64,000 bases of DNA from Parcubacteria group bacterium. Lineage in GTDB: Bacteria > Patescibacteriota > Microgenomatia > UBA1400 > PJMF01. Below, one piece after another: positions 28,354 to 64,000 of this stretch. A model generated the notes under the pieces. It worked only from the letters and a program-made list of their open reading frames with translations. It was not told where the DNA came from and made no database searches. Every line of letters starts with the position of its first letter. The first letter of the stretch is position 1. The DNA lies in NCBI GenBank assembly GCA_943350175.1, contig CALQZX010000002.1, forward strand, positions 66,061-130,060. The letters run 5' to 3'. Position numbers and translations under genes: made by a program.

Positions 28354-28381
28354 CCTGCAAGTTCGACGTCTTTTTCCCGTT

Positions 28382-37030: not shown

Positions 37031-38133
37031 TTTTGTAGAAGCGCTAAATATTGTTTGGCAATTTTTTCAATTTTATATTTTTCTTCAAATTTTTCTTTAG
37101 CATTTCTGGCTAATTTTTCTTGTAGATTTTTATCTTTTAGTAGCTTGATGATGGAATTTGCCAAATCAAGATAATCGCCATCTTTAGCCAAAAGAGCGCT
37201 CTCACCATTGCTAATTAATTCATTGCCTGGCGCGCGATCAAAAGCAACAATTGGTTTTTGAAGAGCCATTGCCTCGATAATTGTTAGGCCAAAACCCTCC
37301 AATGGCCAAACTGATGGACAAAGAACTATTTCACTTTGTTCTATTAAATCTTGTTTGTTTTTTACATACTTTAGAAATTTAATTTGAGAATCATTGTTGC
37401 TTGATTTTTTTAATTCTTGTTCAAAACTTCCTTGTCCCACAATTAGTAATTCTGCATCCTTGAATTCTTTTTTGACAAAAGCAAAAGCTTTAATGGTCAG
37501 ATCTTGGCCTTTGCCTTTTTCTAACCTAGAAACCACGATGAGGCTGTTTTTTTTGATTTTATTTTGTAGATTGAGGGTCGGCGACTTAGATCCGCAGGGA
37601 ATCAAAACCATTTTATTATCTTCAAAGATATTTTTTAAAGATAGCTTGGTGTTTTCGGAGGGGACGATTACTTTTTTGGCAAAATTTTTGCTAATGTAAT
37701 AGAGAAATTTAGGAATGCCATAAAGTTTATTAAAGATTGGTGAGAGTGGTCCATATTCAATGAAAAAAACTGGCAAATTAAATAATCTAGCCATTGGGGT
37801 AACAATAATTTTTTCTGAAAAACCAGAGCAAATTATGACTTGTTCGTCTGTTCTTTTTTTGATTTTAAATAAAGTTTTTAAATAATAAATTTTGGCCAAA
37901 GGAGTTAATAGAAGACTTTTTAAAAGGCCTTTGCGGTTGCCAGCAAAATCTAAATAAATAGGAATTTTCTCTACATTAATGTTTTGATGCTCGGTTAAGC
38001 TTTTTAGTAAAAAATCATTACTGGTGTATAGAAAAACTTGATTTCCAACTCTAGCGATTTCCAAAAGAAGGTCGTGGGCAAATTTTTCAGCACCACCAAA
38101 ATCCTTGCTTTGCAAAAAGAAATTAATTGTCAT
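37027..38133 (-). CDS. glycosyltransferase family 4
   Basis: 368 aa. GT-B fold with the EGFGLTIIEAMALQKPIVA (E-x7-E) signature. Confidence 0.75.
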   Translation of the reverse strand: MTINFFLQSKDFGGAEKFAHDLLLEIARVGNQVFLYTSNDFLLKSLTEHQNINVEKIPIYLDFAGNRKGLLKSLLLTPLAKIYYLKTLFKIKKRTDEQVIICSGFSEKIIVTPMARLFNLPVFFIEYGPLSPIFNKLYGIPKFLYYISKNFAKKVIVPSENTKLSLKNIFEDNKMVLIPCGSKSPTLNLQNKIKKNSLIVVSRLEKGKGQDLTIKAFAFVKKEFKDAELLIVGQGSFEQELKKSSNNDSQIKFLKYVKNKQDLIEQSEIVLCPSVWPLEGFGLTIIEAMALQKPIVAFDRAPGNELISNGESALLAKDGDYLDLANSIIKLLKDKNLQEKLARNAKEKFEEKYKIEKIAKQYLALLQN

Positions 38134-38378
38134 TTTTTCTCAATTTGAATGATAATTTCGTTTAAATCTTTTGGTAAGCTATCGATCATTTTTTTCATAG
38201 CTGGGCCGAAAAGTGGAATCAAAATGTATGCCGCCAAAGCCAAAAAAATAATATTAAAAAACCAAGAGCCAATACTGCGAGCGATTCCGGCTAGAAAATT
38301 TTTCTTAAAAATTGCCCAATTACTTATGTTGTATAAGTTTTCAGTTTCTTCGCCGCTTATGTTTAGTTTTTTCTTCAT
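38130..38378 (-). CDS. small membrane protein
   Basis: 82 aa, one TM helix, 4-nt overlap with the downstream GT4 gene. Confidence 0.4.
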
Positions 38379-38425
38379 TTGTTCATTCTAGCTTTTTTAA
38401 TTCTTTTTGGCTACAATTCTCTTTT

Positions 38426-40648: not shown

Positions 40649-40660
40649 ACTGGTATTTGG

Positions 40661-41395
40661 ATGCTAAAAATTCATTCTCTAGATACCTTTGGCACTCATG
40701 ATGGACCAGGCATTCGTCTGGTCATCTTTGCGCAAGGCTGCCAATTTCGTTGTCTTTATTGCCACAATCCAGACACACAAGCTCTGGAAACTGCTGAAAT
40801 GAAAAGAATGGAAACTGCTGAAATAATTGAGTTCCTAGAAAAGGAAAGAACTTATTTTGGTCAAACTGGAGGCCTCACTATTTCTGGTGGTGAGCCAACT
40901 CTACAGGCAGAGGCATTGACTGAGCTTTTCAAAGAATGTCAAAAGCACGGTTTTAATACCTGCCTAGATACTTGCGGAGCTGTTTTTGACCAAAGCGTCA
41001 AAGATCTCTATGATCTGACTGACATTGTAATGTTGGATGTTAAACACATTGATCCTGTTTGGCACCAAAAACTAACTAAAGCCAGTAACGAAAATGTTTT
41101 AAAAAATGCTGCTTACCGTGAGGAAAGTGGTAAGGAAATGTGGCTGCGTTACGTTTTGGTACCTGGCTGGACTGACCAACCTGAGTATCTAGAAACCTGG
41201 GCTAAATATTTCGCAGGCTATAAAACAGTCAAAAGAGTGGAACTTATCCCTTATCATGAATTAGGGGTTTTTAAATATCAGGCTTTAGGTAGAAAATATG
41301 AGTTAGTTGGTGTCAAACCACCAAGCCAAGCAGAAAAAGATGCTGCTGCCTTAATTTTTAGAAAATATTTAGGAGATAAAGTTGTGGTCGTTTAG
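40661..41395 (+). CDS. pflA: pyruvate formate-lyase activating enzyme (radical SAM)
   Basis: 244 aa. CxxxCxxC cluster GCQFRCLYCHNP and the glycine-rich SAM motif (GGLTISGGEP). Confidence 0.9.
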   Translation: MLKIHSLDTFGTHDGPGIRLVIFAQGCQFRCLYCHNPDTQALETAEMKRMETAEIIEFLEKERTYFGQTGGLTISGGEPTLQAEALTELFKECQKHGFNTCLDTCGAVFDQSVKDLYDLTDIVMLDVKHIDPVWHQKLTKASNENVLKNAAYREESGKEMWLRYVLVPGWTDQPEYLETWAKYFAGYKTVKRVELIPYHELGVFKYQALGRKYELVGVKPPSQAEKDAAALIFRKYLGDKVVVV

Positions 41396-41420
41396 TCCAT
41401 GGCAAATAAAGAAAGAAAAT

Positions 41421-43508
41421 ATGAATTTAGATAAATTGTTTTATCCAAAATCAATCGCTATTATTGGTGCTTCCAGTCGAGAGAAAACTGTTGGCAACGA
41501 CGTGGTCAAAAACCTTGTTCAACAAGGCTACCAAGGTCAAATTTATCCAATTAATCCTAAAATTGATGAGCTTTATGGTCGCAAGGTTTATCATGAAATC
41601 ACCGAAATCGATGGAGAAGTTGAATTAATTGTCGTAGCTATTCCAGCTAAATTTGTGGCCGATGAAATCAGAAAAGCCGCTACAAAAGGTGCTAAAGCAG
41701 CGATCGTTATTTCTGCTGGTTTTAAAGAAGCTGGTAATTTGGAACTAGAACAACAATTGGCTGCAACTTGCAATGAACTTGGCGTAACTTTAGTCGGTCC
41801 AAATTGTTTGGGTGCCATTAACGCTGAACATAGCATGAATGCTTCTTTTGCCGCGGTCATGCCTCCTGTTGGCGACATTGCCTTCTTTTCTCAAAGTGGC
41901 GCTCTTTGTACAGCAGTCTTGGATTATGCCAAAGACTTGGGCATTGGTTTTTCTAAGTTTGTTAGTATTGGCAATAAAGCTGCTTTGGAAGAACTTGATT
42001 TGATCAAATATTTGCACGAAGATCCAAAAACCAAAGTCATTTGTTTATATGCAGAATCTCTAGAAAATGCTCCAGAATTAATTACTGCTCTTAGAGAATT
42101 AAATCGTGGTAGCAATCCAAAACCAGTCATTGTTCTTAAATCTGGTAAAACCGCTGCTGGTGCAGGCGCCATTGCCTCCCACACTGGTTCACTTAGCACC
42201 GGCGACAGTGCTTACCAGGCCTTATTTGCTCAAGCTGGCATGATTCGTGCCAATACTATTAGCGAACTTTTTGATTTAGCTCAAGTTTTTTCCATGAATC
42301 AGATTCAGGCAGTTAAAAAAGTCACCATCATCACCAATGCTGGTGGTCCTGGTGTTTTGACCACTGATGCGGTGATTGAGAGTGGTTTGGAATTGGCAGA
42401 TTTAGCTCCAGAAACTGTGGTTAAATTACGCTCTTTCTTACCTCCTTCAGCCAGTACTCATAATCCAGTTGATGTTTTGGGTGATGCTGCTGGTGAAATT
42501 TATGAAAAAACCATCGAAGTGGTGGCAGAAGACCCAAATACCGACGCCATTATCGTGTTACTCACTCCTCAATCGATGACTGAACCAGAAAAAACTGCTC
42601 AAGCTGTAGTTAAAATGCGTCAAACCAGCAGCAAGCCAATTGTGGTTAGTTTGATGGGTCGCGCTTTGGTGGCAGGAGGTGTGGAAATTTTACGTGCCAA
42701 TAAAATCGCTAGCACTGCTTTCCCAGAGCCAGCCGCTGCCGCAATGGCCAAGTTTGCTAAATTTAGTAACTGGAGCCAGGAAAAGAATGAAGCTTTCTTA
42801 AGCTATAACGACGTGGATAAAGAGAAGGTCGCTCAAATTTTCGCCGCCGCCAAAGAAAAAGGTCAAACCTCATTTCCAGAGGCAGAAGCTATGGAAATCA
42901 TGAAAGCCTACCGTTTTCCTTTGCTTAAATCAGCTATCGCCAGAAGTAGTGACGAGGCCTTGAAAATCATGCAAGAATTCAACTGCCAAGTGGCCATGAA
43001 AATAGTTTCGCCAGATATTTTGCATAAGAGCGACGTGGGCGGTGTCAGTCTTGGTGTAAGCGTCGATAATATTGTTAGCGAATATGAAGCCATGATGACT
43101 AGAGTGGCTGCCAATAAGCCAGAAGCCAAGCTCGAAGGTGTGCTTTTGATGGAAATGGCTGGCAAAGGAGTGGAATTGATCCTTGGAATCAACAAAAATG
43201 CTTTGGGCACAATGTTAATGTTTGGTTTGGGCGGCATCTATGTGGAAGTTTTCAAAGATGTAAACCTCGCTTTTGCTCCTTTAACTAGAACTGATGTTTT
43301 GAAAATGATTGGTGGTCTTCGCTCAAGTAAATTACTTGAAGGCGTGAGAGGTGAAGCTGCAGCTGATAAAGAAAGCATTATCGAGTCGATCGGCCGTTTA
43401 TCTCAACTAGTGAGTGATTTCCCTACAATTGTGGAATTGGATATCAATCCATTATTGGCGACCAAAGATGGTGCTAAAGTGCTGGACGTGAGAGTAGTGA
43501 TAGAATAA
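41421..43508 (+). CDS. ADP-forming acetyl-CoA synthetase (fused alpha-beta; acetate--CoA ligase [ADP-forming])
   Basis: ~695 aa. N-terminal CoA-binding Rossmann domain (SIAIIGAS…G…IYPINP) and a succinyl-CoA-synthetase-like domain, then a C-terminal ATP-grasp domain. Start set at the ATG at 41421 (MNLDKLFYPK…). Confidence 0.8.
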   Translation: MNLDKLFYPKSIAIIGASSREKTVGNDVVKNLVQQGYQGQIYPINPKIDELYGRKVYHEITEIDGEVELIVVAIPAKFVADEIRKAATKGAKAAIVISAGFKEAGNLELEQQLAATCNELGVTLVGPNCLGAINAEHSMNASFAAVMPPVGDIAFFSQSGALCTAVLDYAKDLGIGFSKFVSIGNKAALEELDLIKYLHEDPKTKVICLYAESLENAPELITALRELNRGSNPKPVIVLKSGKTAAGAGAIASHTGSLSTGDSAYQALFAQAGMIRANTISELFDLAQVFSMNQIQAVKKVTIITNAGGPGVLTTDAVIESGLELADLAPETVVKLRSFLPPSASTHNPVDVLGDAAGEIYEKTIEVVAEDPNTDAIIVLLTPQSMTEPEKTAQAVVKMRQTSSKPIVVSLMGRALVAGGVEILRANKIASTAFPEPAAAAMAKFAKFSNWSQEKNEAFLSYNDVDKEKVAQIFAAAKEKGQTSFPEAEAMEIMKAYRFPLLKSAIARSSDEALKIMQEFNCQVAMKIVSPDILHKSDVGGVSLGVSVDNIVSEYEAMMTRVAANKPEAKLEGVLLMEMAGKGVELILGINKNALGTMLMFGLGGIYVEVFKDVNLAFAPLTRTDVLKMIGGLRSSKLLEGVRGEAAADKESIIESIGRLSQLVSDFPTIVELDINPLLATKDGAKVLDVRVVIE

Positions 43509-52416: not shown

Positions 52417-52578
52417 ATTTTGTTATTTTATTTCTTGCTGTGGAATATAGTGAAAATCTATAACTGTGCCGCAACGGTGATTCCTTAGGGATTAGTCCGA
52501 TCTTCAGCAAAAGAGATATTCTTGACGAGCATCGAGTTAGAGTTATTTTGTAGACTTTAATTTTCTACCACAATCGAT

Positions 52579-52600
52579 GCTCCCTGAGGGGAGCTTTTTT
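52579..52600 (+). terminator. intrinsic terminator; its 5' stem arm can alternatively pair with 52527-52534
   Basis: GCTCCC-TGAG-GGGAGC followed by T6. The upstream octamer GAGCATCG (52527-52534) is exactly complementary to CGATGCTC (52575-52582), which overlaps the terminator stem. Confidence 0.55.
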
Positions 52601-52676
52601 GTCTAAAGACCAAGGTAAAGCAATTTATTTATTTTGCTCCAAGGGTTTTCCTTGCGGAGCTAGTGAAAGGTCTGAA

Positions 52677-53390
52677 ATGTCAAAAGAAGAAGGCAGGAAA
52701 GCTTTAGAAATGGCTGGAAGCATTGGAGTTGGTGCGAGCGAAATGGGGGCAAACTGGGCCTCACTCAACACACTTAACTTTTCCTCAATCTTAGAAAATT
52801 TAGGTCAAGAAATCGGGATGAGCAGTTTTGAATGGCAAAAAATTTTATCTCAGGCTGGTTTGTGGATGATAGATGGCTTAGATGCAAGAATTACTAATTT
52901 GCAAAACAAGGCTGTCGAACAGAGCACAGCAATTGAATTAAGACAGATGTTTGGCGTGCCAATTTCTTTACTAGCAATGCCTGTTTTCGTTGAATTGGAA
53001 GGCATGGAATTAGCTGCAAAGATTGATCTGAAACAAGAAGCATTGGCAACTTCTCAACTATGGGAGCAAATTAATAATAGGTTGCTTTATGCTATTCAGT
53101 TGTTTTTGGCAGAACAAATTAATTTGGTAGAAGAAGATAAGCTTGCGCATGAAGCAGCCTTGACTGAGTCAAAAAAGGAAGCAGATGATGTCCCTGCCTT
53201 GGCAGAAACAATTCAAAGAATAGGAGAAAAATTCAAATTAAAGCTGGCAGAGTTGGAAAAAAATAAAGATTCTTTATTAAATGCTTTTTCAAAAGTAAGC
53301 AAAAATACCATTGCTTCCGTTGAAAGAGTTTTCGAGACGACGGTTTTTAGTGCGCGAGGACAGAGTTTGACTACGGTTTCTATAAAATAA
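52677..53390 (+). CDS. hypothetical protein
   Basis: Start placed at the ATG at 52677 (GAAAGG 7 nt upstream). The tracked TTG start at 52599 lies inside the terminator T-tract. ~237 aa, helical, no motif recognised. Confidence 0.45.
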   Translation: MSKEEGRKALEMAGSIGVGASEMGANWASLNTLNFSSILENLGQEIGMSSFEWQKILSQAGLWMIDGLDARITNLQNKAVEQSTAIELRQMFGVPISLLAMPVFVELEGMELAAKIDLKQEALATSQLWEQINNRLLYAIQLFLAEQINLVEEDKLAHEAALTESKKEADDVPALAETIQRIGEKFKLKLAELEKNKDSLLNAFSKVSKNTIASVERVFETTVFSARGQSLTTVSIK

Positions 53391-53557: not shown

Positions 53558-54229
53558 ATGAAGAGGATCTTAATTCTTGAGAGCGATTGGCTTGTTTTAT
53601 CTACTCTAAATGATTATCTAAAAAAGAAGGGCTGTCTAGTAAATTGTGCTCAAACAATTGAGAGAGCCAAAGTCTTACTTCTTAAACATAAATTCGACCT
53701 ATTTATTTGCGAACGCATCTTGGAAGAGGGTGACGTTTTAGATTTTTTAGATTCTATTAAAGAGAAAAAACTATTCATGAGGGTCTTGGTTGTCAGTCAA
53801 AAAAAATCATTATTAGATAGAATTGATACTTTAAAATTAGCCAACGATTTTCTAGCCAAACCATTTAATTCAACTGAACTTTATTTGAAAATTGACAATC
53901 TGCTGAATTTAGAAAGAATTGGCGGCGATGAATTCATAGAAAATTCACTTTTTTTGCTTAAAGATTCAGCTGGCTTAGAAAATAAAAATCATTTTCGTCC
54001 TCAAGAATTAAAAATTCTTGAATGTCTCCTCAAGCATAAGAATATGGTAATTTCTTATGAGACGATCTCCTCATATGTTTGGGGTTATAGAGATTCGTTC
54101 CCTCTTAAAAAAACCATTAGTGTCTATATTAGAAGAATAAGGACTAAGCTATTCTTACAAAATTTGAAGATCATGACTGTCAAAAATAGAGGTTATAAGC
54201 TTATTGATTTAAAGGAAAAAAGCATTTAA
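53558..54229 (+). CDS. OmpR-family response regulator
   Basis: 223 aa. Receiver domain (MKRILILESD…, DLFICE) and C-terminal winged helix (…ISVYIRRIRTKL). Confidence 0.65.
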   Translation: MKRILILESDWLVLSTLNDYLKKKGCLVNCAQTIERAKVLLLKHKFDLFICERILEEGDVLDFLDSIKEKKLFMRVLVVSQKKSLLDRIDTLKLANDFLAKPFNSTELYLKIDNLLNLERIGGDEFIENSLFLLKDSAGLENKNHFRPQELKILECLLKHKNMVISYETISSYVWGYRDSFPLKKTISVYIRRIRTKLFLQNLKIMTVKNRGYKLIDLKEKSI

Positions 54230-54671
54230 CGGTAGTGCCTCTATTTTTTTTGGAAAATATTTTTAGATATCCGCCAAATTCTTTTTTTATTTCTTTATTA
54301 ATTTTTTGAAGATCTGATTCTTTGGACCCATCTCCTAGAATTAATATACTTTGTTGGAGCAGCTTCTTGGAAAGAAAAGATATGCCGCTTCCACCATCAG
54401 TTATGCTCAACGACAGCTCTTTTTCACTTTCTAATTTGCTGGTTAATAAAATAATTTTATTTGGTATTTTTTTTGGATATGCTTTTTTAGCTTGTTTAAT
54501 TAAACTAAAAATTAGTCCTTGGAAAATAGCTTCGTTCCCAATAATCTCAAGTTCTTTTGGAACGTCTATTTTGCAACTATAAATAAAACCTTTTTTAATT
54601 AAAGAACTGAGAGTTATGACTTCTCTAATTTTTTGATTAACAGGAATTTTTCTCGCTTCAATTCGCTTCAT
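54201..54671 (-). CDS. stand-alone histidine-kinase-type ATPase domain (HATPase_c only; possible kinase remnant)
   Basis: 156 aa. N box (GNEAIFQGLIFSLIKQA), G1 (ITDGGSGIS), G2-like (GDGSKE…GGYL). No HisKA/H-box, no TM region. Convergent with and overlapping the regulator gene by 29 nt. Confidence 0.4.
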   Translation of the reverse strand: MKRIEARKIPVNQKIREVITLSSLIKKGFIYSCKIDVPKELEIIGNEAIFQGLIFSLIKQAKKAYPKKIPNKIILLTSKLESEKELSLSITDGGSGISFLSKKLLQQSILILGDGSKESDLQKINKEIKKEFGGYLKIFSKKNRGTTVKCFFPLNQ

Positions 54672-54715: not shown

Positions 54716-56197
54716 CTATGGATTTGCTATCTCTATCTCCCACACCTCCAAACACGGTGCGCCATTTGGCCTACAGAAGCTCGCTAGACGCTGTTTAGGC
54801 GGTATTTCCATCTTTAAGCGGTGTGAATTAACCACCAATAATTTCAAGTCAAATCCTTCAGCCTTTTCCCAGAAACTTTTCGGAATATTTCGGACAGGTT
54901 GGCCAATGCCTTCCACATAAATATTTTTCACATCTTGATTGTGTAAATTTAGCAGAATTCCATCTGGTAGTGTCCCAAAATAACCCTCCGTTGCTACCGC
55001 CACCTTTTGCGTCTTAGCCAATTCTTGAATCATCTCTGTCACTTCCTTAATTCCGTGTCCAGAAGACCATTCTTGCAAGAATTGCTCGCGATCAACTTTG
55101 CTCAATTGCAGCTGATCGACATTAAAGTAAGCATTTTTGATAAACATTGCATAAGGCAAAATAATCAGCAGCAAAGCCAAATACCTAATAACTTTCTTCT
55201 CACGTAAATTATGGAGAGTAATAGCCGCTGAACTGAGGAAAAAGAAAGCGCTTGGCAGTATGTAGCGAGGATAAATGATTTTGCCAAGCAAAACCAAAGG
55301 CAAAATAAACAATATTCCAGATAAAAATAAAACCGTTTGTTTGCGACGAGTTTTGGCAAAAGCTGGCAAAGCCAAAACCAAGATCACTGGGCCTAAATAA
55401 GTCATCAATTGTTCCATAAAGAAAGTAGTATTGTGAACAATTACTGGCCAGATGGCAGTAGAAAAAATCACTTCTTTGCTTTGCAGGAAATTACCACCGA
55501 CCGCAAATAATTGACTGAATAAAGGTACGACTTTGAAACTGGCAAATGCCAAGCCAGCCAAAAGCAAACCAGCACTAATTTTCAAGCCTTTTTCGACAAT
55601 CAATTTAAGAGTGAGTTTCTCCTCAAAGAAAATTGCCAGATAGAAAACCGGCATGAAAAGCAAGGCTGGAGTTTTGCTCATGATTGCTAGGAAGAAAAAA
55701 CCCGCTAATCCTAGAATTGCCCACAGACTTTTGTTTTTCACAATCAACAAAGTGAAATAATAAGCCACGATTAGATTCGCCAAGAGCAAAGCATCGGTAA
55801 TGGCCAGGCGATTGTGAAAGAAGATAAAAGGATTAATGATTGCCAAAAACATCGCCAGGTAAGCGGCTGATTTTTCTTTAAGCTTGGCCAAGATCAGGAA
55901 AATAAAAGACACACTCACTGCTCCGGCCAAAACCGAGACTAATCTAGCAGCGTAGAGCTGATCGCTAAAGAAGTGTAGAAAAGGCACCATTAACCACATC
56001 AAGAGTGGAGTCTTGCCATCGTTCATAGGATAGAAAAGGTAGCGATTAAAATCATCGATAATCAATTGAGCCCAACGAATATAGATTGATTCATCGGCAA
56101 AGACTGGCAAAGCAGTCAAATGAAAAAGCTGTAGTGCAAAATACAAAACCAAGAGCAATAAAAAGAAAAACCAAGCTTTATTCTTCACGCTTCCCAT
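54716..56197 (-). CDS. GT-C glycosyltransferase, family 39 (PMT/ArnT-like polyprenyl-phosphate-sugar-dependent transferase)
   Basis: 493 aa, ~11 TM helices, N-terminal loop DE motif (VFADESIYIRWAQ) as in PMT/ArnT enzymes. Confidence 0.65.
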   Translation of the reverse strand: MGSVKNKAWFFFLLLLVLYFALQLFHLTALPVFADESIYIRWAQLIIDDFNRYLFYPMNDGKTPLLMWLMVPFLHFFSDQLYAARLVSVLAGAVSVSFIFLILAKLKEKSAAYLAMFLAIINPFIFFHNRLAITDALLLANLIVAYYFTLLIVKNKSLWAILGLAGFFFLAIMSKTPALLFMPVFYLAIFFEEKLTLKLIVEKGLKISAGLLLAGLAFASFKVVPLFSQLFAVGGNFLQSKEVIFSTAIWPVIVHNTTFFMEQLMTYLGPVILVLALPAFAKTRRKQTVLFLSGILFILPLVLLGKIIYPRYILPSAFFFLSSAAITLHNLREKKVIRYLALLLIILPYAMFIKNAYFNVDQLQLSKVDREQFLQEWSSGHGIKEVTEMIQELAKTQKVAVATEGYFGTLPDGILLNLHNQDVKNIYVEGIGQPVRNIPKSFWEKAEGFDLKLLVVNSHRLKMEIPPKQRLASFCRPNGAPCLEVWEIEIANP

Positions 56198-57386
56198 TAA
56201 ATAGGAAAACTACCCCACTAAGCAAGAGGTAGAAAGCTGGAATTAGCCAAGTAACGGCTTTTTGCAGAGGTTCCAAACTACTGGTGTCCAAATGAAAACT
56301 CATCCAAGGAATGTAATAAAACCAAGGCACATTGCGAAGTAGAGAAGATAGTGAAAAAACGATCAATAAATTACGCCAAAATTTAATTTTTACCATTGGT
56401 ACAAAAATCAAAGACCATAATAAATACCAAGGCAAAAATTGCTTGGAACGATCAGTGAGGAGTGGCGCAAACATGGCCAAACTCATCAGCTCGTAGCTAT
56501 ATTTCTCTATTAGCTGAAATAACTTTATCTTGCTGCCAAGTTTTTCTTTAACCAAGAAATAGCCGATGAAAGGCAATAAAACTACCGTGGCAAATTTAAT
56601 CGAAATGGAAAAAACCATCAACAGCACGATCAAAATAATTCTCAGCAACTTGTTTTTCTTAAACTCGCTCGCCAAATAAACAGCCAAAAGCGCTGGTGCC
56701 AGCATCCATAAATCGTTGTGAGCGCTGCTAAGAATTTCGATCAAAACTAGTGGGTTGAGAAAGAAAAGAGCAAGCTTTTGATAATTTTCTTTTTTGAAGA
56801 ATTTTTCGCTAATTAATAAGGTGAGTAATAAAGATAAAAAGGCAAATAATTTAAAGACAAAAAAAGTACTTAGGAATTTGCCAAATCCCGCCACATACGG
56901 CGCTAGAGATAAGGCTGTCCAACCATAGCCATAAGGAGCTGGTGTATGGGTATTATTCATAAAGCGTAGCAATGGATCATTGGCAAAATCCAAAGCAGTT
57001 TTGATGTGCGGATTGGTGCCATATTCGACTACCATTTTGGCGTTAAAAATATAATTAAAGAGATCATGAGAAAGGCCATTATAAGAAAGAATTAAAGGCA
57101 AACTAATAATAATTAAAAATTGCCAAAAGTTTTTTCTAGAATTTAAATTTAATTTTTCAAAGTTTTTGAGAATTAATAAATAATTAGCAAAAATTAAAAC
57201 AACTAAGACAAAAAAGAAAACGGTGCGAAAACTTTGCAGTGGTAAGACATTTTTCCAGAGATAAGTTTGAAAATTTACAAACCAATCATATTTAAGTAAG
57301 ATTAAATTTGGATCAGCAACCACAAAAGAAAACAGCGCGAAAATCACGAAAAGAAAAAAATAAGAAATCAACCAAAATTTTTTCAT
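56178..57386 (-). CDS. polytopic membrane protein (probable GT-C-fold glycosyltransferase or associated protein)
   Basis: 402 aa, >10 TM helices, overlaps its neighbours by 20 and 4 nt (operon). Confidence 0.45.
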   Translation of the reverse strand: MKKFWLISYFFLFVIFALFSFVVADPNLILLKYDWFVNFQTYLWKNVLPLQSFRTVFFFVLVVLIFANYLLILKNFEKLNLNSRKNFWQFLIIISLPLILSYNGLSHDLFNYIFNAKMVVEYGTNPHIKTALDFANDPLLRFMNNTHTPAPYGYGWTALSLAPYVAGFGKFLSTFFVFKLFAFLSLLLTLLISEKFFKKENYQKLALFFLNPLVLIEILSSAHNDLWMLAPALLAVYLASEFKKNKLLRIILIVLLMVFSISIKFATVVLLPFIGYFLVKEKLGSKIKLFQLIEKYSYELMSLAMFAPLLTDRSKQFLPWYLLWSLIFVPMVKIKFWRNLLIVFSLSSLLRNVPWFYYIPWMSFHLDTSSLEPLQKAVTWLIPAFYLLLSGVVFLFNGKREE

Positions 57387-58138
57387 TGCTTTGGATATTT
57401 ATTTGTCCAATCAGCCATTTTGATCTTCAAAATATCAGTGAACATCAAAATAGAATCTCTCACTGGACTGACGCGATCAGTTTGGAAGTGTTTCCAAAGA
57501 ATTGGCACTTCTTGCATGCCAAAGTTATATTTTTTGGCTAAATATAAAAGTTCGACATCAAAAGCACCAGTAAAAGCATCTTGGCGATTATCTTTGCCGG
57601 AGTAAATATAAAGGCTTTCAAAAAGTTTGATAGTGGCTTTTTCTGAAAACAACTTAAAACCACATTGGCTATCTTGAGTACCTGGAACGGCTAATAATTG
57701 CACAACTAAATTGAAACCTCGACCCATGATGTGCCTATAAAAAGGTTCTTTTTCTCTCTTGGCACCAATAATCTCTCTGGAGCCAAAAATAACCTCATGT
57801 TCACTAGTGTATTTCAGTAATTTACGAACTTCACGAAGGGGAGTTGATTGATCAAAGTCAGTAAAAAGTCTCCAACTACCGGTTGCTTGTAACATACCAG
57901 CTTTGACGGTTGGACCCTTGCCCTTATGTTGATTGAGGACAACTTTAATTCTTTCATCTTTTTTACTGAATTTTTGAAGTTCTTCAACTGTGTCATCGGT
58001 GCTACCGTCATCAGATAAAACGAGCTCCCATGATCTTTCATAGTCCTTCAAAAATTGAAGAACTTCCTCAAGTACTCCACGAGCAATGTTTTTACTTTCA
58101 TTGTAGGAAGGTAAGACTACTGATAGATATGGTTTCAT
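57383..58138 (-). CDS. GT2 polyprenyl-phosphate glycosyltransferase (Dpm1/Ppm1-like)
   Basis: 251 aa. VVLPSYNE, LSDDGSTDDT (DxD) motifs of GT2 dolichyl/polyprenyl-phosphate hexose synthases. Confidence 0.75.
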   Translation of the reverse strand: MKPYLSVVLPSYNESKNIARGVLEEVLQFLKDYERSWELVLSDDGSTDDTVEELQKFSKKDERIKVVLNQHKGKGPTVKAGMLQATGSWRLFTDFDQSTPLREVRKLLKYTSEHEVIFGSREIIGAKREKEPFYRHIMGRGFNLVVQLLAVPGTQDSQCGFKLFSEKATIKLFESLYIYSGKDNRQDAFTGAFDVELLYLAKKYNFGMQEVPILWKHFQTDRVSPVRDSILMFTDILKIKMADWTNKYPKQ

Positions 58139-58151
58139 AGGTTTAAATAAT

Positions 58152-59693
58152 TTAATTATTATAGCTAGTTAGAACAGTAATTTCTGGGCCATTTTCTATT
58201 TGAAAAACTTCTTGGATATTTTTATTTGGAAAAACGATGATTTCATAGATCTCAGATTTCAAAACGTTTTTTTCTACTTTTTCTTCATTAATGATGAAAA
58301 GTTTAGTTGCGCTGTGGTGATTCTCCATTTCTACTGGCTCATTTTCATTGGTGCTGAGGAAATATCTATAATTCATGCCATAAAGATCTTTGGAGTTGGC
58401 TAATAAAACGATATTATATTTTTCATCTTTACCAACTCTTTTATAAATTTCATCAGTTGTTCTCTTTATGTCGTCAATTGTCCAGCTATTGCTTCTAATC
58501 GAGTATCTCTGCGCGTTGTTTATGATGAAATAAATTAAAAATGGTACTAGCAAGACAGTCGCTAGCCATTTGTTTTTGAATTTAGTGAAAAATAAGCCAT
58601 AGAACATGTAAACAAAAGGAAATAAATACGCAATGTAATGTTCGTAGACTTGATGCTGATAAAGACTAACTCCGAGAATTCCTGGCACCAAATAAGCAAG
58701 CAAAATGATCTCTCCATCTGAAAGTTTTTTTCTATTTCTAATCAAATAGATCGCTGTCAAAATCAAGGCCACAAACATGAAAGGATGGTTGTTTTTATTG
58801 ACAGCAAAACTTGCTTCAAAGAGTACTTGAGAAGCACGATCTTTCAGATCAATACTGATGAATTTACTAAAAGCTGCAAATCCTTGGCGTCCAGCTTTTC
58901 TTTCTAAATTGAAGCTTTCTTTTTCAGTCAAAATTGAAGCGAAGGATTCTAAATTTACTGATCCATGTTTTAGATCAAAAAGAACGAGTGGCGTGAGAGA
59001 GAGAATGAAAATTAAGACAGCTAGAATGATATTGCCAATAAATTTCTTTTCTTTGCTGAAAAATTTATTTTTTTGTAGTTTAATTTTTTCAATGAGTTGA
59101 ATCAGAAAAATTATGCCAGCTCCAGAGATAGATAATAAAGTGACGTAATGCAATTGAATTAAAAGACTAAAGCAAACAGAAACAAGTAGCCAATATTTCG
59201 CATTCTTTTTCCAAGCCAGATAAGTGAAATAGAACATCAATAAACTAAAGAATGGCGCGATATTAGGATTCCAACTGAATCGAGCTAGATTGACTACTCC
59301 GGCAGATAAAGTAAAGAAAATAGTTGCCAAATAAGCAGTTTTACGATCAAAAATTTTATTGGTGATCTTGAACAATAAAAAAACGGTTAAGACTGACAGG
59401 GCAGCGACAGCGAAAACCGGGCCCATTGGATCTGGATAGCTTAGGAATAAGAACGGCAACATAAAATAATAATAAAAAGGACCCAAATACATATTGCCGA
59501 TGCTGGTGACAGGGCCGATGAAAACTGGATCTAAATTTTTGAAAATGCGAGAGACAACCAAAACGTCCCTGCCCTGATCACCCTGGAACATGACTGAGTT
59601 TCTTAAATTGTAGAAACGAAGGAAAATGGCTGAAATTAGAATTACCAATAAAAAAAAGTGCTGAAATTTTATTCTTTTAATCAAGCCACGCAT
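58152..59693 (-). CDS. GT-C glycosyltransferase, family 39-like (second copy)
   Basis: 513 aa, ~12 TM helices, N-terminal loop with …FQGDQGRD… (ArnT/PMT-like). Confidence 0.6.
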   Translation of the reverse strand: MRGLIKRIKFQHFFLLVILISAIFLRFYNLRNSVMFQGDQGRDVLVVSRIFKNLDPVFIGPVTSIGNMYLGPFYYYFMLPFLFLSYPDPMGPVFAVAALSVLTVFLLFKITNKIFDRKTAYLATIFFTLSAGVVNLARFSWNPNIAPFFSLLMFYFTYLAWKKNAKYWLLVSVCFSLLIQLHYVTLLSISGAGIIFLIQLIEKIKLQKNKFFSKEKKFIGNIILAVLIFILSLTPLVLFDLKHGSVNLESFASILTEKESFNLERKAGRQGFAAFSKFISIDLKDRASQVLFEASFAVNKNNHPFMFVALILTAIYLIRNRKKLSDGEIILLAYLVPGILGVSLYQHQVYEHYIAYLFPFVYMFYGLFFTKFKNKWLATVLLVPFLIYFIINNAQRYSIRSNSWTIDDIKRTTDEIYKRVGKDEKYNIVLLANSKDLYGMNYRYFLSTNENEPVEMENHHSATKLFIINEEKVEKNVLKSEIYEIIVFPNKNIQEVFQIENGPEITVLTSYNN

Positions 59694-59699
59694 GGTTCT

Positions 59700-60899
59700 T
59701 TAGTTCTTTTTCTTTTTCCAAATAAAAGTATTGTAAGCAAAGAAATTCCAAAACATGCCAATGAAAATACCGACGACTGCAGAAATTGTTCCAGTATCAA
59801 CTACGAAATTAATAAGTGGCACGGTGAAAATTGGGATAAGACCAATTACATTTGATGTAAAAGCAGCAATAGCAGTTTGAACAAGAATGGAGCCGCCACT
59901 AGATAAATTGAAGGTCAGAAAACTAAGTGGAATTTGTTTGGCTTCGAGCTTGCGATCCTTAAATGTCCATAGGTTGCTCCAGATAAAATTAGAAATGATG
60001 GCCGTTTCGATAGATAAAAAGTTGGCTAGTACAAAAATTTGTTCACCAGAGAAGACTAACCTCCATAATTGCAGAGCAATTAGCTGCACCATCGCGCCAA
60101 AAGCCCCAACCATAGCAAATCTCACCACTCTCATCTTTAATATTTCTTTAATTCTAACTCTCATAAGATATAACAGGGTATTTTTTATGTACTCTGGCCC
60201 AATTTTACTATTACCTACTACGCGATCTTTAAATTCAAATGGTACTTCTGCAATTTTAAAACCTTTTCTAAGGGTTTTGTGCAAAAAGCCAATTTGAAAA
60301 GTATAGCCTGAAAAAAGTTCACTGTGCATTTCTTTCTCTACAACAAGGTAAACTTCTTTTTTGATTGCTCTAAATCCAGTCGTCCAGTCTCTGATGGAAA
60401 AATCTAACATTAAAAAATTAATGAATAGATTGCCGACGATACTCAAAAATTTACGGTGGAATCCCCAGTTTTCTGGAATAGAGCCACCTTCGATGTATCT
60501 AGAACCAAGAACCATATCGTTGCCTTGATCTATTTTTGCTAAAAAAGCAGGGATTTTCTTCGGATCGTGAGAGAGATCCGCGTCAAATTCGAAAACCAGA
60601 TCAGCACTCAATTTATTAAAAGCATGATTCATGCCGCTTAAATAAGCGCCTCCTAAGCCTGATTTCTTTTTGTTGATTAGTAATTCTAAGAATTTGAATT
60701 TCTTTTGCAATTCTGTGACAAATTCTGAAGTTCCATCTGGAGAGCTATCATCAACCACTAAAATTTTCATTTCCCAGTTTTTGATTTCTTTAAAAACATT
60801 GCCAAGGGATCCCACTGTTTGGGCGATATTGCCTTTTTCATTGTAAGTAGGAATGATAATAATTGCTTTTTTCATTTTAGTTGGCGTTTTTGCTTTCAA
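59700..60899 (-). CDS. GT2 polyprenyl-phosphate glycosyltransferase fused to a GtrA-like membrane domain
   Basis: 399 aa. IIIPTYNE, VVDDSSPDGT motifs. C-terminal ~130 aa has 4 TM helices of GtrA type. Confidence 0.75.
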   Translation of the reverse strand: MKAKTPTKMKKAIIIIPTYNEKGNIAQTVGSLGNVFKEIKNWEMKILVVDDSSPDGTSEFVTELQKKFKFLELLINKKKSGLGGAYLSGMNHAFNKLSADLVFEFDADLSHDPKKIPAFLAKIDQGNDMVLGSRYIEGGSIPENWGFHRKFLSIVGNLFINFLMLDFSIRDWTTGFRAIKKEVYLVVEKEMHSELFSGYTFQIGFLHKTLRKGFKIAEVPFEFKDRVVGNSKIGPEYIKNTLLYLMRVRIKEILKMRVVRFAMVGAFGAMVQLIALQLWRLVFSGEQIFVLANFLSIETAIISNFIWSNLWTFKDRKLEAKQIPLSFLTFNLSSGGSILVQTAIAAFTSNVIGLIPIFTVPLINFVVDTGTISAVVGIFIGMFWNFFAYNTFIWKKKKN

Positions 60900-61854
60900 A
60901 TTCCAAATCTTGTTGCACCATTAAAGTCACTAATTCTTCAAAATTAATAGTAGGTTTCCAATTGAGAGATTTCATGGCTTTTTCTGGATTACCAATCAAT
61001 AAATCAACTTCTGCTGGACGATCATATTTTTTATTGTGTTTATAGTATTTTTCGTAATCACCAAGACCAGCTGCTTTACAAGCAATTTCCAAGAATTCTC
61101 TGACGCTGTGAGTTTCACCGGTGGAAATAACATAGTCATCAGCTTGCTCTTGTTGAAGCATGGCCCACATAGCTTCGACGTAATCTTTGGCGTAACCCCA
61201 ATCTCTTTTGGAATCCAAGTTTCCGAGCTCAATGAACTCTTGCTTGCCCAATTTAATACGAGCGACAGCATTACTAATTTTACGAGTAACGAATTCCAAA
61301 CCACGGCGTGGCGACTCATGATTGAAAAGAATGCCAGAAACGGCAAACATGTCATAAGATTCACGGTAATTTACCGTAATCCAATGACCATAAACTTTAG
61401 CGACGCCATAAGGTGAGCGAGGATAGAATGGTGTGTTTTCATTTTGAGGAACTTCTCTGACTTTGCCAAACATTTCACTTGAGCTGGCTTGGTAGAATTT
61501 AGCTTTTGGACAAGCCAATCTCATCGCTTCCAAAACTCTAGTCACACCAATGGCAGTAAATTCGCCGGTTAAGACTGGTTGCTCCCAAGAAGCTTTGACG
61601 AAGGATTGAGCGGCTAAGTTATAGATTTCATCTGGTTGGATGTCTTGAAAAGCAAATGTCAAAGAATGTTGATCGATCAAATCACCAGAAATTAATTCCA
61701 AGTTTGGATTGTGAATAATGGTTTTAATACGGTCAAAATTTTGAGTACTGGTGCGACGAGTTAGACCATAAACTTTATAGCCTTTTTCAAGCAATGATTC
61801 AGCTAAATAAGAACCATCTTGTCCGGTAATTCCTGTGATAAAGGCTTTTTTCAT
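60877..61854 (-). CDS. gmd: GDP-mannose 4,6-dehydratase
   Basis: 325 aa. MKKAFITGITGQDGSYLAESLLEKGY…, YxxxK (YGVAKVYGHW), the C-terminal …GNLDSKRDWGYAKDYVEAMW motif typical of Gmd. Confidence 0.9.
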   Translation of the reverse strand: MKKAFITGITGQDGSYLAESLLEKGYKVYGLTRRTSTQNFDRIKTIIHNPNLELISGDLIDQHSLTFAFQDIQPDEIYNLAAQSFVKASWEQPVLTGEFTAIGVTRVLEAMRLACPKAKFYQASSSEMFGKVREVPQNENTPFYPRSPYGVAKVYGHWITVNYRESYDMFAVSGILFNHESPRRGLEFVTRKISNAVARIKLGKQEFIELGNLDSKRDWGYAKDYVEAMWAMLQQEQADDYVISTGETHSVREFLEIACKAAGLGDYEKYYKHNKKYDRPAEVDLLIGNPEKAMKSLNWKPTINFEELVTLMVQQDLEFESKNAN

Positions 61855-62807
61855 ATATTTTCTCTCCAGTAATTTAAAATTCTTTCTAAAGTTTCTTTTA
61901 ATTCATGCTCTGGGGCATAGCCCAAATTTACAATCTTTTCATTGTCGCAAACAAGATAAGGAAGGTCAACTGGGCGAATTTTACTTGGGTCAACGAGAAC
62001 CTTAATTTCTTTGTTTGCCATGCTAATTAGCAGATCAAGAATCTCTTTAATACTGTGGCTCGCACCAGAGCCAACGTTGTAAACTTCGCCGCTTTGGCCC
62101 TTTTTCATAAGTAAGATATAGGCGGAAACAATGTCTTTAACGTCGGAAAAATCGCGCACGCTCTCCAAATTTCCAACGCTGATAAAATCTTGCTGGCCTT
62201 TTTCTACTTTGGCAATGGCTGCTGCCAGATCTGCAACGACAAAACCAAGAGTTTGACGTTCACCAATATGATTAAAAGGTCTAACTCTGACGATATTGAG
62301 TTGCTCGCTTTTGACAAAAGTGTAGACCATCATGTCTTGAATCAATTTTGATAAAGCGTATGGATTGTCTGGGCCTAATTGTGACTTTTCATTAATTGCT
62401 TCACTACTAGCCTCGTACATTAGGGCTGTGCTAACGTGAAGCATCTTGCTTTCTGGCGCATATTCTTTAATTGCTTCGAGCAAATTCAACTGTAAGCTGG
62501 TATTCATTTCTAAAATAAATTTACGTTTCTCAAAACTATCCCCAACGTTGGCCAAAGAAGCCAAGTGATAGATTTCATCTGGTTGAATTTCTCTAATTAA
62601 ATCCTGAGTGGCTTGGTAATCAGTCAAATTAATTTGATGGATATTGTTTGGATCGACAAATTTCTTGACGAATTGGCCGTCATCTCTATATGAGGTGACA
62701 TGCAAATCTCTTTCACCTCTATTGTAGAGTTCTTCAACTAAATGTGAGGCGACGAAGCCAGTTCCACCAGTAATGAGGATTTTTTTCATAAATTTATCTT
62801 TTACCAA
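61851..62807 (-). CDS. NAD(P)-dependent sugar-nucleotide epimerase/reductase (GDP-4-keto-6-deoxymannose reductase- or epimerase-like)
   Basis: 318 aa. ILITGGTGFVASHL Rossmann motif, YALSKL (YxxxK). 4-nt overlap with gmd. Confidence 0.7.
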   Translation of the reverse strand: MVKDKFMKKILITGGTGFVASHLVEELYNRGERDLHVTSYRDDGQFVKKFVDPNNIHQINLTDYQATQDLIREIQPDEIYHLASLANVGDSFEKRKFILEMNTSLQLNLLEAIKEYAPESKMLHVSTALMYEASSEAINEKSQLGPDNPYALSKLIQDMMVYTFVKSEQLNIVRVRPFNHIGERQTLGFVVADLAAAIAKVEKGQQDFISVGNLESVRDFSDVKDIVSAYILLMKKGQSGEVYNVGSGASHSIKEILDLLISMANKEIKVLVDPSKIRPVDLPYLVCDNEKIVNLGYAPEHELKETLERILNYWRENI

Positions 62808-64000
62808 TGCCTAAATATTGAAAGCCCATTTTTTTGATTTTTTCTGGATCGAATTGGTTTCTAGCATCAATGAAAAATTGATTTTCGTTATTTCTGACTT
62901 TGGAGAAATCGAAGCCAATGATTTCTGGCCATTCCACCACACACATGATAACGTCGCTGTCTTCACAGGCTTCTTCAATACTTGAATATTGTTGATGGCG
63001 ATCGCTGTCTAAGGCGCTGTATTTGGCCATTGGATCATAACTTTTGACAGTCGCACCAAGATTACTTAATAAAGGAATAATTTTGGTGGATGGAGCTTCA
63101 CGCATATCGTCAGTATTTGGTTTGAAAGATAAGCCAAGAAGAGCGACGGTTTTGTTTTCAAAACCACTAATTTCCTCTGCAAATTTTTCCAAAAGACGAT
63201 AAATACGGTTTTTGTTTATTTCATTGACGCGATTGAGCAAATTGCCATCTTCACCAATGCTTCTGGAATAAGCTGCTAGCTCTTTGACATCCTTAGGGAA
63301 GCAAGAACCGCCGTAGCCAAGTCCTGGATACCAATAGTGTTGGCCAATTCTTTTATCGTAACCAATGGCTTTAATGACTTCATTGATATCTGCACCATTT
63401 TTTTCGCAAAGATTAGCAATTTCATTAATGAAAGTAATGCGAGTGGCTAGATATGAGTTGGCGGTGTACTTAGCCATTTGCGCTGAAGCGACTTTGCAGC
63501 GAATCACGGGAGCGTTTAGGCTTTCATGTAATTCTTCCAATTTCTCAAAAACAAATTCAGATTCTGCACCAATGACAATTCTGTCTGGATGCAAAGTATC
63601 TTGGACGGCTGAGCCTTCGCGTAAAAATTCTGGCAGAGAAGCGCCGTAAAAATTAACTGACGATGTTTCTTTGATGATGGCAATAGTTTTCTCCAAAGTT
63701 CCTGGAGGAACTGTTGACTTGATAACAACGATGGCTGAGTCACTAAGATAAGGAGCTAAAGATTTGGCACTGGCGAAGATATAACGTAAATCGGCTGTTT
63801 CATCAGCTGCGGAAGGAGTGCCTACAGCAATAATGATGATTTCGGCGCCAGTGATGGCAGTTTCATAGGAAGTGGTGAAAGTGAGTTTGCCTTTGGCTTG
63901 CTGCTCTAATAATAAATCTTGAAGTCCTGGTTCGTAAAAAGGTACTTGGCCTTTTTCCAAAAGTTTGACTTTGTTTTCATCGATATCTAAGCCAACTACT
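62794..64000 (-). CDS. UDP-glucose/GDP-mannose 6-dehydrogenase family protein (5' end runs off the window end)
   Basis: The frame stays open to 64000 upstream of the tracked TTG (…VVGLDIDENKVKLLEKGQVPFYEPGL…, the canonical N-terminal region). Central GGSCFPKD catalytic-Cys motif. Confidence 0.8.
   Translation of the reverse strand, partial: VVGLDIDENKVKLLEKGQVPFYEPGLQDLLLEQQAKGKLTFTTSYETAITGAEIIIIAVGTPSAADETADLRYIFASAKSLAPYLSDSAIVVIKSTVPPGTLEKTIAIIKETSSVNFYGASLPEFLREGSAVQDTLHPDRIVIGAESEFVFEKLEELHESLNAPVIRCKVASAQMAKYTANSYLATRITFINEIANLCEKNGADINEVIKAIGYDKRIGQHYWYPGLGYGGSCFPKDVKELAAYSRSIGEDGNLLNRVNEINKNRIYRLLEKFAEEISGFENKTVALLGLSFKPNTDDMREAPSTKIIPLLSNLGATVKSYDPMAKYSALDSDRHQQYSSIEEACEDSDVIMCVVEWPEIIGFDFSKVRNNENQFFIDARNQFDPEKIKKMGFQYLGIGKR

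Follow-up and report, generated by a model that had tools for sequence, protein, structure and literature searches.

The final 9 kb of a 64,000-nt stretch of DNA from a Parcubacteria group bacterium (NCBI GenBank assembly GCA_943350175.1, contig CALQZX010000002.1, positions 66,061 to 130,060 of the forward strand; the whole stretch is called the window here) carries a predicted glycosylation gene cluster. Eight successive minus-strand open reading frames (ORFs) extend from position 54716 to beyond the window end at 64000, with no rival long ORFs in the region. Read 5′ to 3′, they encode a UDP-glucose dehydrogenase-like enzyme (Ugd; ORF 62794 to beyond 64000), an Rmd-type reductase (61851-62807), a GDP-mannose 4,6-dehydratase (Gmd; 60877-61854), a GT2 glycosyltransferase fused to a GtrA-type domain (GT2-GtrA; 59700-60899), a GT-C membrane protein of 513 residues (58152-59693), a second GT2 of 251 residues (57383-58138), an MptA/B-like membrane protein of 402 residues (56178-57386) and another GT-C of 493 residues (54716-56197). 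With the starts called on the contig, neighboring genes overlap by 4, 4 and 20 nt or are separated by gaps of 1-13 nt. From Ugd through the 513-residue GT-C, the junctions consist of 4-nt overlaps and gaps of 1-6 nt. This eight-gene layout is one tight operon. All eight ORFs have significant family matches and are thus not chance ORFs, which bears out the eight consecutive minus-strand genes proposed in an earlier, sequence-only reading of this DNA. The families that it had named for Gmd, the short-chain dehydrogenase/reductase-type reductase, the sugar-nucleotide 6-dehydrogenase and the two GT2 proteins, one of them GtrA-fused, were likewise recovered. A promoter and terminator scan returned no more sites than shuffled sequence.

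The cluster is conserved as a unit. One genome per species was scanned for relatives of the 513-residue GT-C, 80 loci were fetched and their synteny was scored by script. The window's own contig is referred to as locus L001 and the loci of relatives as L002-L084, while P0391 is an independent representative. The scan found such relatives in 526 species genomes, and the homologues belong to Patescibacteria with the names Pacebacteria, Woesebacteria, Shapirobacteria and Microgenomatus. Of the 58 species loci with sufficient flanking sequence, 47 have all eight genes in this order, and the exceptions mostly lack a single gene. The order still holds where the GT-C is only 39-45% identical. The sequence-only reading had named a cluster not conserved as a unit in relatives as grounds for its refutation; these loci clearly show the opposite. 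Two modules can be distinguished within it. In L021, L074 and L077, a four-gene core (513-residue GT-C, GT2, Mpt-like protein and 493-residue GT-C) occurs without the Ugd-Rmd-Gmd-GT2-GtrA module. The short GT2 gene follows the 513-residue GT-C gene in 65 of 67 loci, and in L021 a different short GT2 lies upstream of the GT-C, so that the pairing of GT2 and GT-C genes is retained. Many of the cluster-bearing records (L007, L009-L011, L013, L048 and others) are titled "uncultured Pseudomonadales bacterium", "Vitreimonas sp." or "candidate division TM6", which is probably mislabelled taxonomy.

The first three genes of the operon encode enzymes of nucleotide-sugar metabolism. Ugd (62794-64000, minus strand) contains PF03721, PF00984 and PF03720 and scores 401 bits against TIGR03026 (cut-off 189.8 bits). 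Its 5′ end is clipped by the window. The full gene encodes 426 residues and reaches window-equivalent position 64074, and the full-length protein in L001 scores 438 bits. Among equivalogs it comes closest to TuaD, with 393 bits, short of the cut-off of 700 bits. The alternative of a GDP-mannose dehydrogenase was rejected, because the best models are all UDP-glucose dehydrogenases. Ugd is found in 60 of the 61 loci that have Gmd.

The reductase gene (61851-62789, minus strand) encodes 312 residues from an ATG start, or 318 residues from an alternative TTG at 62807. The closest solved relatives of its product are 2PK3, a GDP-6-deoxy-D-lyxo-4-hexulose reductase matched over the full length (E 2.8e-53), and 6X3B, a GDP-6-deoxy-D-mannose reductase (E 1.6e-39). 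The next structures are dehydratases, at 1e-29 or weaker, and the score against the Fcl model NF047922 is no more than 61 bits, where the cut-off is 500 bits. The choice between Rmd and Fcl, which the sequence-only reading had left to sequence comparison, thus falls on the Rmd type, a GDP-4-keto-6-deoxy-D-mannose reductase. The Gmd gene (60877-61854, minus strand) overlaps that of Rmd by 4 nt. Its 325-residue product scores 448 bits against PF16363 and 434.4 bits against TIGR01472, above the equivalog cut-off of 415 bits, and is 74-93% identical among related loci. Since the reductase is Rmd-type and not Fcl, the predicted product of the Gmd/Rmd pair is GDP-D-rhamnose or its C4 epimer, GDP-6-deoxy-D-talose. 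Adjacent Gmd and Rmd-type enzymes are likewise encoded in Aneurinibacillus thermoaerophilus, for the S-layer glycan, and in Pseudomonas aeruginosa, for the common polysaccharide antigen, and the Rmd proteins of these two systems are the closest solved relatives mentioned above. In both organisms, GDP-D-rhamnose is used by cytoplasmic glycosyltransferases. In contrast, the only glycosyltransferases of the operon described here are predicted lipid-sugar synthases and GT-Cs.

The fourth gene, GT2-GtrA (59700-60875, minus strand), encodes a predicted polyprenyl-phosphate sugar synthase of 391 residues from an ATG start, within a longer ORF of 399 residues. It scores 94 bits against PF00535 and 59 bits against PF04138 (GtrA_DPMS_TM), the latter at residues 260-394, and its hydrophobic segments fall within residues 258-388. 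Its match to the dolichol-phosphate mannose synthase (DPMS) of Pyrococcus furiosus, 5MLZ, has an E-value of 4.9e-40 and aligns residues 11-333 with 24-326 of 374, spanning both the catalytic and the membrane parts. The archaeal enzyme is built likewise, with a four-helix GtrA/DPMS membrane domain behind the GT2 catalytic domain. The protein described here differs from it in being bacterial and in sharing its operon with Gmd and Rmd, with which it is strictly co-inherited. An orthologue is present in 61 of 61 loci with Gmd and in none of the six without, so that its occurrence coincides exactly with that of Gmd and Rmd. The donor of GT2-GtrA is probably a GDP-sugar, and its strict co-inheritance with Gmd and Rmd suggests that this may be the GDP-6-deoxyhexose rather than GDP-mannose.

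The short GT2 (57383-58138, minus strand; 251 residues, PF00535 at 79 bits) is a second candidate polyprenyl-phosphate sugar synthase. It is a soluble protein, as a scan for hydrophobic segments revealed none and hence no transmembrane segment, and it resembles the catalytic domain of Ppm1 in size and build. Its closest solved relatives are DPMS 5MLZ (E 4e-13), ArnC (1.2e-10) and GtrB 5EKP (4.4e-8). The two GT2 proteins of the operon share 28% identity with each other. ArnC is among the best relatives of both, and the top NCBIfam match of both is PgfS, far below threshold. By these resemblances, both belong to the kin of the polyprenyl-phosphate glycosyltransferases DPMS, ArnC and GtrB.

Co-inheritance also bears on whether the eight genes form one pathway at all. 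Ugd, Rmd and Gmd might instead feed cytoplasmic glycosyltransferases encoded elsewhere, and their adjacency to the GT2 and GT-C genes would then reflect a frozen gene order. The region just past the end of the window holds trmD, on the opposite strand, followed by an RmlD-like gene, RmlB, an LCP-family glycopolymer ligase and a Wzx-type flippase. The tRNA methyltransferase gene trmD (4941-5582 of L001, window-equivalent 64112-64753) separates Ugd from the Rml genes and lies only 37 nt from the start of Ugd. It has no relation to glycosylation and is just as conserved, being kept in place in L002-L004 and in most of L005-L084, which indicates that gene order here can persist without a functional link. 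The occurrence of the GT-C core without Ugd, Rmd and Gmd in L021, L074 and L077 fits a separation of the two modules, and we know of no polyprenyl-phosphate-6-deoxyhexose or -glucuronate donor documented for synthases of this kind. However, the short overlaps and gaps from Ugd to the 513-residue GT-C suggest translational coupling. Moreover, the strict association of GT2-GtrA with Gmd and Rmd (61 of 61 loci versus none of six) would be unexpected if the enzyme used GDP-mannose independently of them. A set of unconnected pathways is very unlikely in our judgement.

The 513-residue (58152-59693, minus strand) and 493-residue (54716-56197, minus strand) GT-Cs have PF13231 (PMT_2) as their sole Pfam match, at 37 and 45 bits, respectively (cut-off 26.1 bits). 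The latter is encoded by the last gene of the conserved cluster. In both, a membrane domain is joined to a soluble alpha/beta domain at the C-terminus, about 100 residues long, which is the type of build seen in ArnT. After the first transmembrane helix, the 513-residue family has an invariant GDQGRD motif (D39, D43; alignment A1) and the 493-residue family an invariant PVFADE motif (D35-E36; alignment A3). Their AlphaFold2 models are confident GT-C folds and reach a pLDDT of 82 and a pTM of 0.84 for the 513-residue protein, and a pLDDT of 89 and a pTM of 0.88 for the 493-residue protein. In Foldseek comparisons with the Protein Data Bank (PDB), the former resembles STT3, ALG12 and ArnT (TM-score 0.56) ahead of Pmt4 (2.6e-3). 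The top match of the latter is ArnT 5F15 (2.7e-7, TM-score 0.55, 12% identity), followed by ALG12 (6.5e-7, TM-score 0.64), STT3/PglB, Pmt4 (1.1e-5) and Pmt1/2 (1.7e-3 or weaker). The identities in the matches of both models are 9-16% throughout. At the sequence level, the profile of the 493-residue family weakly touches two solved structures, ArnT 5EZM (E 0.0046) and Pmt4 9E61 (E 0.012), and single-sequence and profile searches with the 513-residue and 402-residue families against PDB sequences gave no match.

The sequence-only reading had placed both PMT_2 proteins in glycosyltransferase family 39, an assignment that is not supported. PF13231 is matched by all 21 members of the 513-residue family, whereas PF02366, which covers GT39/83, is touched by a single one of them (E 0.0017). 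Neither of the two window proteins matches PF02366 even at E-values up to 10. A Pfam scan found neither PMT_4TMC (PF16192) nor MIR in either protein, and both models show the soluble C-terminal domain instead. With ArnT, ALG12, STT3 and Pmt4 about equally similar, the two proteins are GT-C enzymes far from every characterised family. They had also been described as paralogues. Close paralogues they are not: BLASTP detects no similarity between them, and hhalign aligns only their N-terminal halves (71% probability, E 3.7e-5).

The 402-residue protein (56178-57386, minus strand) had previously been listed only as a third polytopic membrane protein. It has a precomputed match to PF26314 (MptA_B_family), as do all 120 of its homologues listed, from which it is probably a third GT-C. 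The cluster would thus probably hold three GT-C enzymes. The protein has at least six hydrophobic segments, and its conserved extracytoplasmic loops include the invariant residues D108, N111, R141, H147 and E217 (alignment A2). Scans of NCBIfam and of a Pfam copy without PF26314 yielded no match, and its family profile shows no relation to either PMT_2 family. In two lineages, it is fused to the 493-residue GT-C: in L004, as a protein of 902 residues as called, and in P0391, as a protein of 938 residues with 39% identity to the 493-residue protein of the window. These fusions suggest that the two proteins act together. A heterodimer of the 513-residue and 493-residue proteins similar to that of PMT1 and PMT2, an earlier suggestion, was rejected, since the two are barely related and the recurrent fusions join the 493-residue protein with the MptA/B-like one.

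The general route of the sequence-only reading, from a nucleotide sugar through a polyprenyl-phosphate-linked sugar to transfer by a GT-C at the outer face of the membrane, is supported by the close match of GT2-GtrA to 5MLZ (E 4.9e-40) and by the likeness of the short GT2 to DPMS, ArnC and GtrB. From the gene content, enzyme families, predicted folds, conservation, modularity and fusions described above, we infer which sugar each lipid carries, that the fused domain takes part in flipping and what accepts the sugars, as follows. In the cytoplasm, Gmd and the Rmd-type reductase would convert GDP-mannose into a GDP-6-deoxyhexose (D-rhamnose or 6-deoxy-D-talose), and Ugd would form UDP-glucuronate. 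The two GT2 proteins would load sugars onto polyprenyl phosphate, with GT2-GtrA most likely using the Gmd/Rmd product or GDP-mannose. The fused GtrA-type domain may also move the lipid-linked sugar across the membrane, in which Wzx possibly takes part as well. At the outer face, the 513-residue PMT_2 protein, the MptA/B-like protein and the 493-residue PMT_2 protein would then transfer the sugars to the acceptor, the last two working as a unit.

This class of mechanism, which combines a GT2, a GtrA-type protein and a GT-C, is established in Gram-positive bacteria (PMC8035078). The multi-component transmembrane glycosylation systems CsbB/GtcA/YfhO, GtlA/GtcA/GtlB, CsdAB/CD/EF with CflA of L. 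lactis and GacI/J/K/L of S. pyogenes share with the operon a GT2 synthase, a GtrA-type element and an outer GT-C (PMC8035078). They also share adjacent GT2 and GT-C gene pairs and an association with rhamnose wall polysaccharide genes and an LCP ligase. Of the features of such systems, the operon has the GT2 synthases, as judged by sequence, a GtrA domain with a nearby Wzx, and a GT-C encoded beside a synthase, and flipping would follow by analogy. It differs in several respects. The GtrA-type domain is fused to the synthase, in the build of the archaeal DPMS, and is not a separate small protein. Three GT-Cs, none of YfhO type and one MptA/B-like, accompany two synthases. Finally, a GDP-6-deoxyhexose pathway is built in, and the host is a Pacebacteria/Microgenomates bacterium of the Candidate Phyla Radiation (CPR).

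The genes around the operon provide the main indication of its acceptor. The LCP ligase scores 74.9 bits against TIGR00350 (cut-off 62.3 bits) and RmlB scores 470 bits (cut-off 365 bits). An RmlA-like gene lies within the window (21760-22506), 40 kb from RmlB and the RmlD-like gene. Among the 53 loci whose flanking sequence sufficed, 38 have an LCP gene no more than 10 kb upstream. In the reduced variants, it directly adjoins the GT-C core: L074 has the order LCP, 513-residue GT-C, GT2, Mpt-like protein, 493-residue GT-C, a fourth GT-C (PTPS_related/AftD-like), Wzx and three GT2. In L050, LCP and Rml are inverted and lie downstream, still adjoining the cluster. This neighborhood of LCP, RmlB, RmlD-like and Wzx genes, together with the position of LCP next to the reduced core, makes a wall glycopolymer more likely than proteins as the acceptor. 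We put the chances at about even that the acceptor is such a glycopolymer, bound to peptidoglycan. Its synthesis would draw on dTDP-rhamnose, the neighboring Wzx would export it, and the neighboring LCP enzyme would ligate it to peptidoglycan. The logic would parallel the decoration of rhamnose-rich wall polysaccharides in Gram-positive bacteria and the GT-C-driven assembly of arabinogalactan and lipomannan in Corynebacteriales.

A number of observations weigh against a wall glycopolymer, or against parts of the route that leads to it. The RmlD-like gene product falls below its cut-off (147 versus 224 bits). In L001 (2625-4527), RmlB lies beside the RmlD-like gene without RmlC between them, whereas RmlC (dTDP_sugar_isom) occupies this place in the more distant L004 (2006-4548). 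No enzyme that forms GDP-mannose was found within the window. The cluster itself holds neither a priming phosphoglycosyltransferase nor a cytoplasmic polymer-building glycosyltransferase. The assignment of the 402-residue protein to MptA_B comes from precomputed matches that could not be reproduced. The adjacency of LCP is weaker evidence than it looks, because the unrelated trmD is equally conserved and synteny is general in these small genomes. Nor does family membership settle the acceptor, since GT-Cs of YfhO type serve teichoic acids in Bacillus and Listeria and Ser/Thr-rich proteins in streptococci (PMC12041528).

Two more such observations concern the 493-residue GT-C and lead to the possibility of protein O-glycosylation: its D35-E36 motif is of the D-E type seen in PMTs and ArnT, and many of its distant family members, although not the close ones, have a precomputed PF02366 match. 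Like the Pmt/Ppm1 system of actinobacteria, this GT-C might take mannose or a 6-deoxyhexose from polyprenyl phosphate and attach it as the first sugar to Ser/Thr residues of surface or secreted proteins, with the MptA/B-like and 513-residue proteins elongating or diversifying the glycan. Pmt4 is indeed touched by both the profile (E 0.012) and Foldseek (1.1e-5), and the adjacent short soluble GT2 is Ppm1-like in size and in its nearest relatives. The window also encodes a sortase and a PKD surface protein. In Gram-positive bacteria, some GT2/GT-C sets, Pgf and GtrB/PgtC2, O-glycosylate proteins (PMC12041528), and PgfS is the top, sub-threshold match of both GT2 proteins. Nevertheless, ArnT, which acts on a lipid acceptor, outranks the PMTs by both profile and fold, and ALG12 and STT3 are as good as the PMTs or better. 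In place of PMT_4TMC stands the ArnT-like C-terminal soluble domain, and PF02366 is essentially missing from the 513-residue family. The acidic D-E motif, which PMTs have in the first extracytoplasmic loop, is shared by ArnT and so does not separate the two families. A scan of the ORFs in the 64-kb window for Ser/Thr-rich stretches found none, which is a weak negative given the small sample of the genome. The LCP/Rml/Wzx surroundings and the LCP-adjoining reduced variants also suit a glycopolymer better. Protein O-glycosylation is therefore rather unlikely in our view, and the automatic label "glycosyltransferase family 39" is poor evidence of protein O-mannosylation. Compared with the actinobacterial Ppm1/Pmt (GT39) system, the operon shares a DPMS-family synthase, a GT-C with an acidic D-E motif and a short GT2 similar to the catalytic domain of Ppm1. 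It differs in having neither PF02366 nor PMT_4TMC, in its C-terminal soluble domain and in that PMTs are not the best structural match.

The PKD-domain protein (463 residues) is followed by the sortase (202 residues) at 26962-28990 on the plus strand, with a 400-residue DUF3048 ORF upstream and SecD and SecF downstream. This arrangement resembles the modules by which monoderm bacteria typically anchor surface proteins, and it offers a possible candidate for a glycoprotein.

A membrane lipid is the third acceptor to be considered. Here, the GT-Cs would glycosylate a membrane lipid and polymerise a chain of the mannan or rhamnan type, as for lipomannan or the ArnT product, and the resulting lipoglycan or glycolipid would not be ligated to peptidoglycan. 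The 402-residue protein is filed under MptA/MptB, the alpha-1,6-mannan polymerases of lipomannan, whose role and dependence on Ppm1 have been described (PMC2157549, PMC2440535, PMC3485146). The cluster is composed of lipid-sugar synthases and GT-Cs, as in late lipomannan synthesis, and the top structural match of the 493-residue protein is ArnT, a lipid A glycosyltransferase. Lipomannan B (LM-B) of Corynebacterium has a glucuronosyl-diacylglycerol anchor, and Ugd could supply the glucuronate for an anchor of this kind. Yet the cluster encodes no GT4 or GT-B enzyme for anchor synthesis, and the association with LCP argues for a peptidoglycan-linked product. The fold matches are limited to 12-15% identity and TM-scores of about 0.5-0.6. 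Lipid A as the target is unlikely in a monoderm CPR bacterium, and ArnA, ArnB and ArnD are not encoded in the cluster. Taken together, we regard a lipoglycan or glycolipid as improbable, more so than a protein acceptor.

Two further known systems are close to the operon. The lipomannan/lipoarabinomannan (LAM) and arabinogalactan systems of Corynebacteriales (Ppm1, MptA/MptB/MptC, Emb/Aft and Lcp1) likewise have serial outer GT-Cs, polyprenyl-phosphate donors, a member of MptA/B and nearby Rml and LCP genes. The operon differs from them in that, beyond the shared fold, there is no sequence-level relation to solved Emb, Aft or PimE structures. It belongs to another phylum, its predicted sugars are a 6-deoxyhexose and a uronic acid instead of arabinofuranose, and its MptA/B label is a precomputed one. 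The second comparison is with ArnC/ArnT (GT83) and the Rhizobium RgtE/RgtA-D system, which share ArnC-like GT2 proteins and a membrane domain with a C-terminal soluble domain, the build in which the 493-residue protein resembles ArnT. Ugd also starts the Arn and Rgt pathways. In contrast to ArnC/ArnT, no ArnA, ArnB, ArnD or ArnE/F gene was found in the operon or its 10-kb flanks, where Ugd and the ArnC-like GT2s are the only counterparts. The identity to ArnT is 12% at a TM-score of 0.55, and ALG12 has the higher TM-score (0.64). An Arn-type modification of lipid A was rejected for lack of ArnA, ArnB and ArnD.

One cytoplasmic glycosyltransferase of the GT4 family (368 residues) is encoded in the window at 37027-38133 on the minus strand, apart from the operon. 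Its best matches, all sub-threshold, are BshA, PglH and SdgA, and it could make a primer or anchor for a surface glycan.

Within the preferred reading of a wall glycopolymer, a more specific and bolder version can be formulated. GT2-GtrA would make polyprenyl-phosphate-D-rhamnose or polyprenyl-phosphate-6-deoxy-D-talose. From this donor and a second lipid-linked sugar, the three GT-Cs would build up the main heteroglycan of the Microgenomates wall on the outer side of the membrane, and the adjacent LCP enzyme would finish the process. To our knowledge, neither polyprenyl-phosphate-linked D-rhamnose nor its 6-deoxy-D-talose counterpart has been described. We hold this version to be doubtful. 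If true, it would make the operon a CPR counterpart of the mycobacterial assembly of arabinogalactan and lipomannan.

The logic of the operon is known from other bacteria. It differs in the fusion of synthase and GtrA domain, in having three GT-Cs that come from two or three highly divergent families and serve two synthases, in the recurrent fusion of Mpt-like and PMT_2 proteins, in the co-inherited GDP-6-deoxyhexose pathway and in the host lineage. Literature searches turned up no account of this cluster, nor of any GT-C system in CPR bacteria. Hardly any biochemistry is available for the envelopes of CPR/Patescibacteria, and these organisms, most of them uncultured, depend on surface contact with their hosts. 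The operon is among the most conserved envelope gene sets of Pacebacteria and Microgenomates and offers a testable handle on their cell coat. The glycan it predicts would be attached on the outer side of the membrane and contain a rare D-configured 6-deoxyhexose, and possibly a uronic acid. A new lipid-linked 6-deoxyhexose donor is a further possibility, given how strictly the DPMS-type synthase is coupled to Gmd and Rmd.

Outside the operon, the window is typical of small CPR genomes, sortase included. Downstream of the operon, at a distance of 44 nt, a 156-residue ORF (54201-54671, minus strand) has a weak match to HATPase_c (E 0.0012, below cut-off). It converges, with a 29-nt overlap, on the gene of an OmpR/PhoB-type response regulator (53558-54229, plus strand). 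This ORF is present in the close relative L002 and not in L003, and it was excluded from the cluster because it is kept in close relatives only. It could be a remnant or a minimal ATPase domain of a kinase. Further away, the segment 48000-52000 has a low GC content (0.27-0.29, versus about 0.37 elsewhere). It encodes a 462-residue HATPase_c protein, a 603-residue protein without a family match and a 210-residue Trans_reg_C protein, and since its content varies among relatives it may be variable or acquired.

An AdoCbl-II cobalamin riboswitch aptamer lies at 52424-52514 on the plus strand (46 bits versus a gathering threshold of 36.5 bits, E 6.5e-8). It is located just upstream of a 263-residue ORF (52599-53390) without a Pfam or NCBIfam match, which may be a B12-related gene. 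At 38312-43508 on the plus strand, genes for a PFL-like glycyl-radical enzyme and its radical-SAM activase are followed by those for an ADP-forming acetyl-CoA synthetase-like protein (CoA_binding, Succ_CoA_lig and ATP-grasp_5) and for a CTP_transf_like-CoaE fusion. The last two genes are also found near the glycosylation cluster in L002 and L003.

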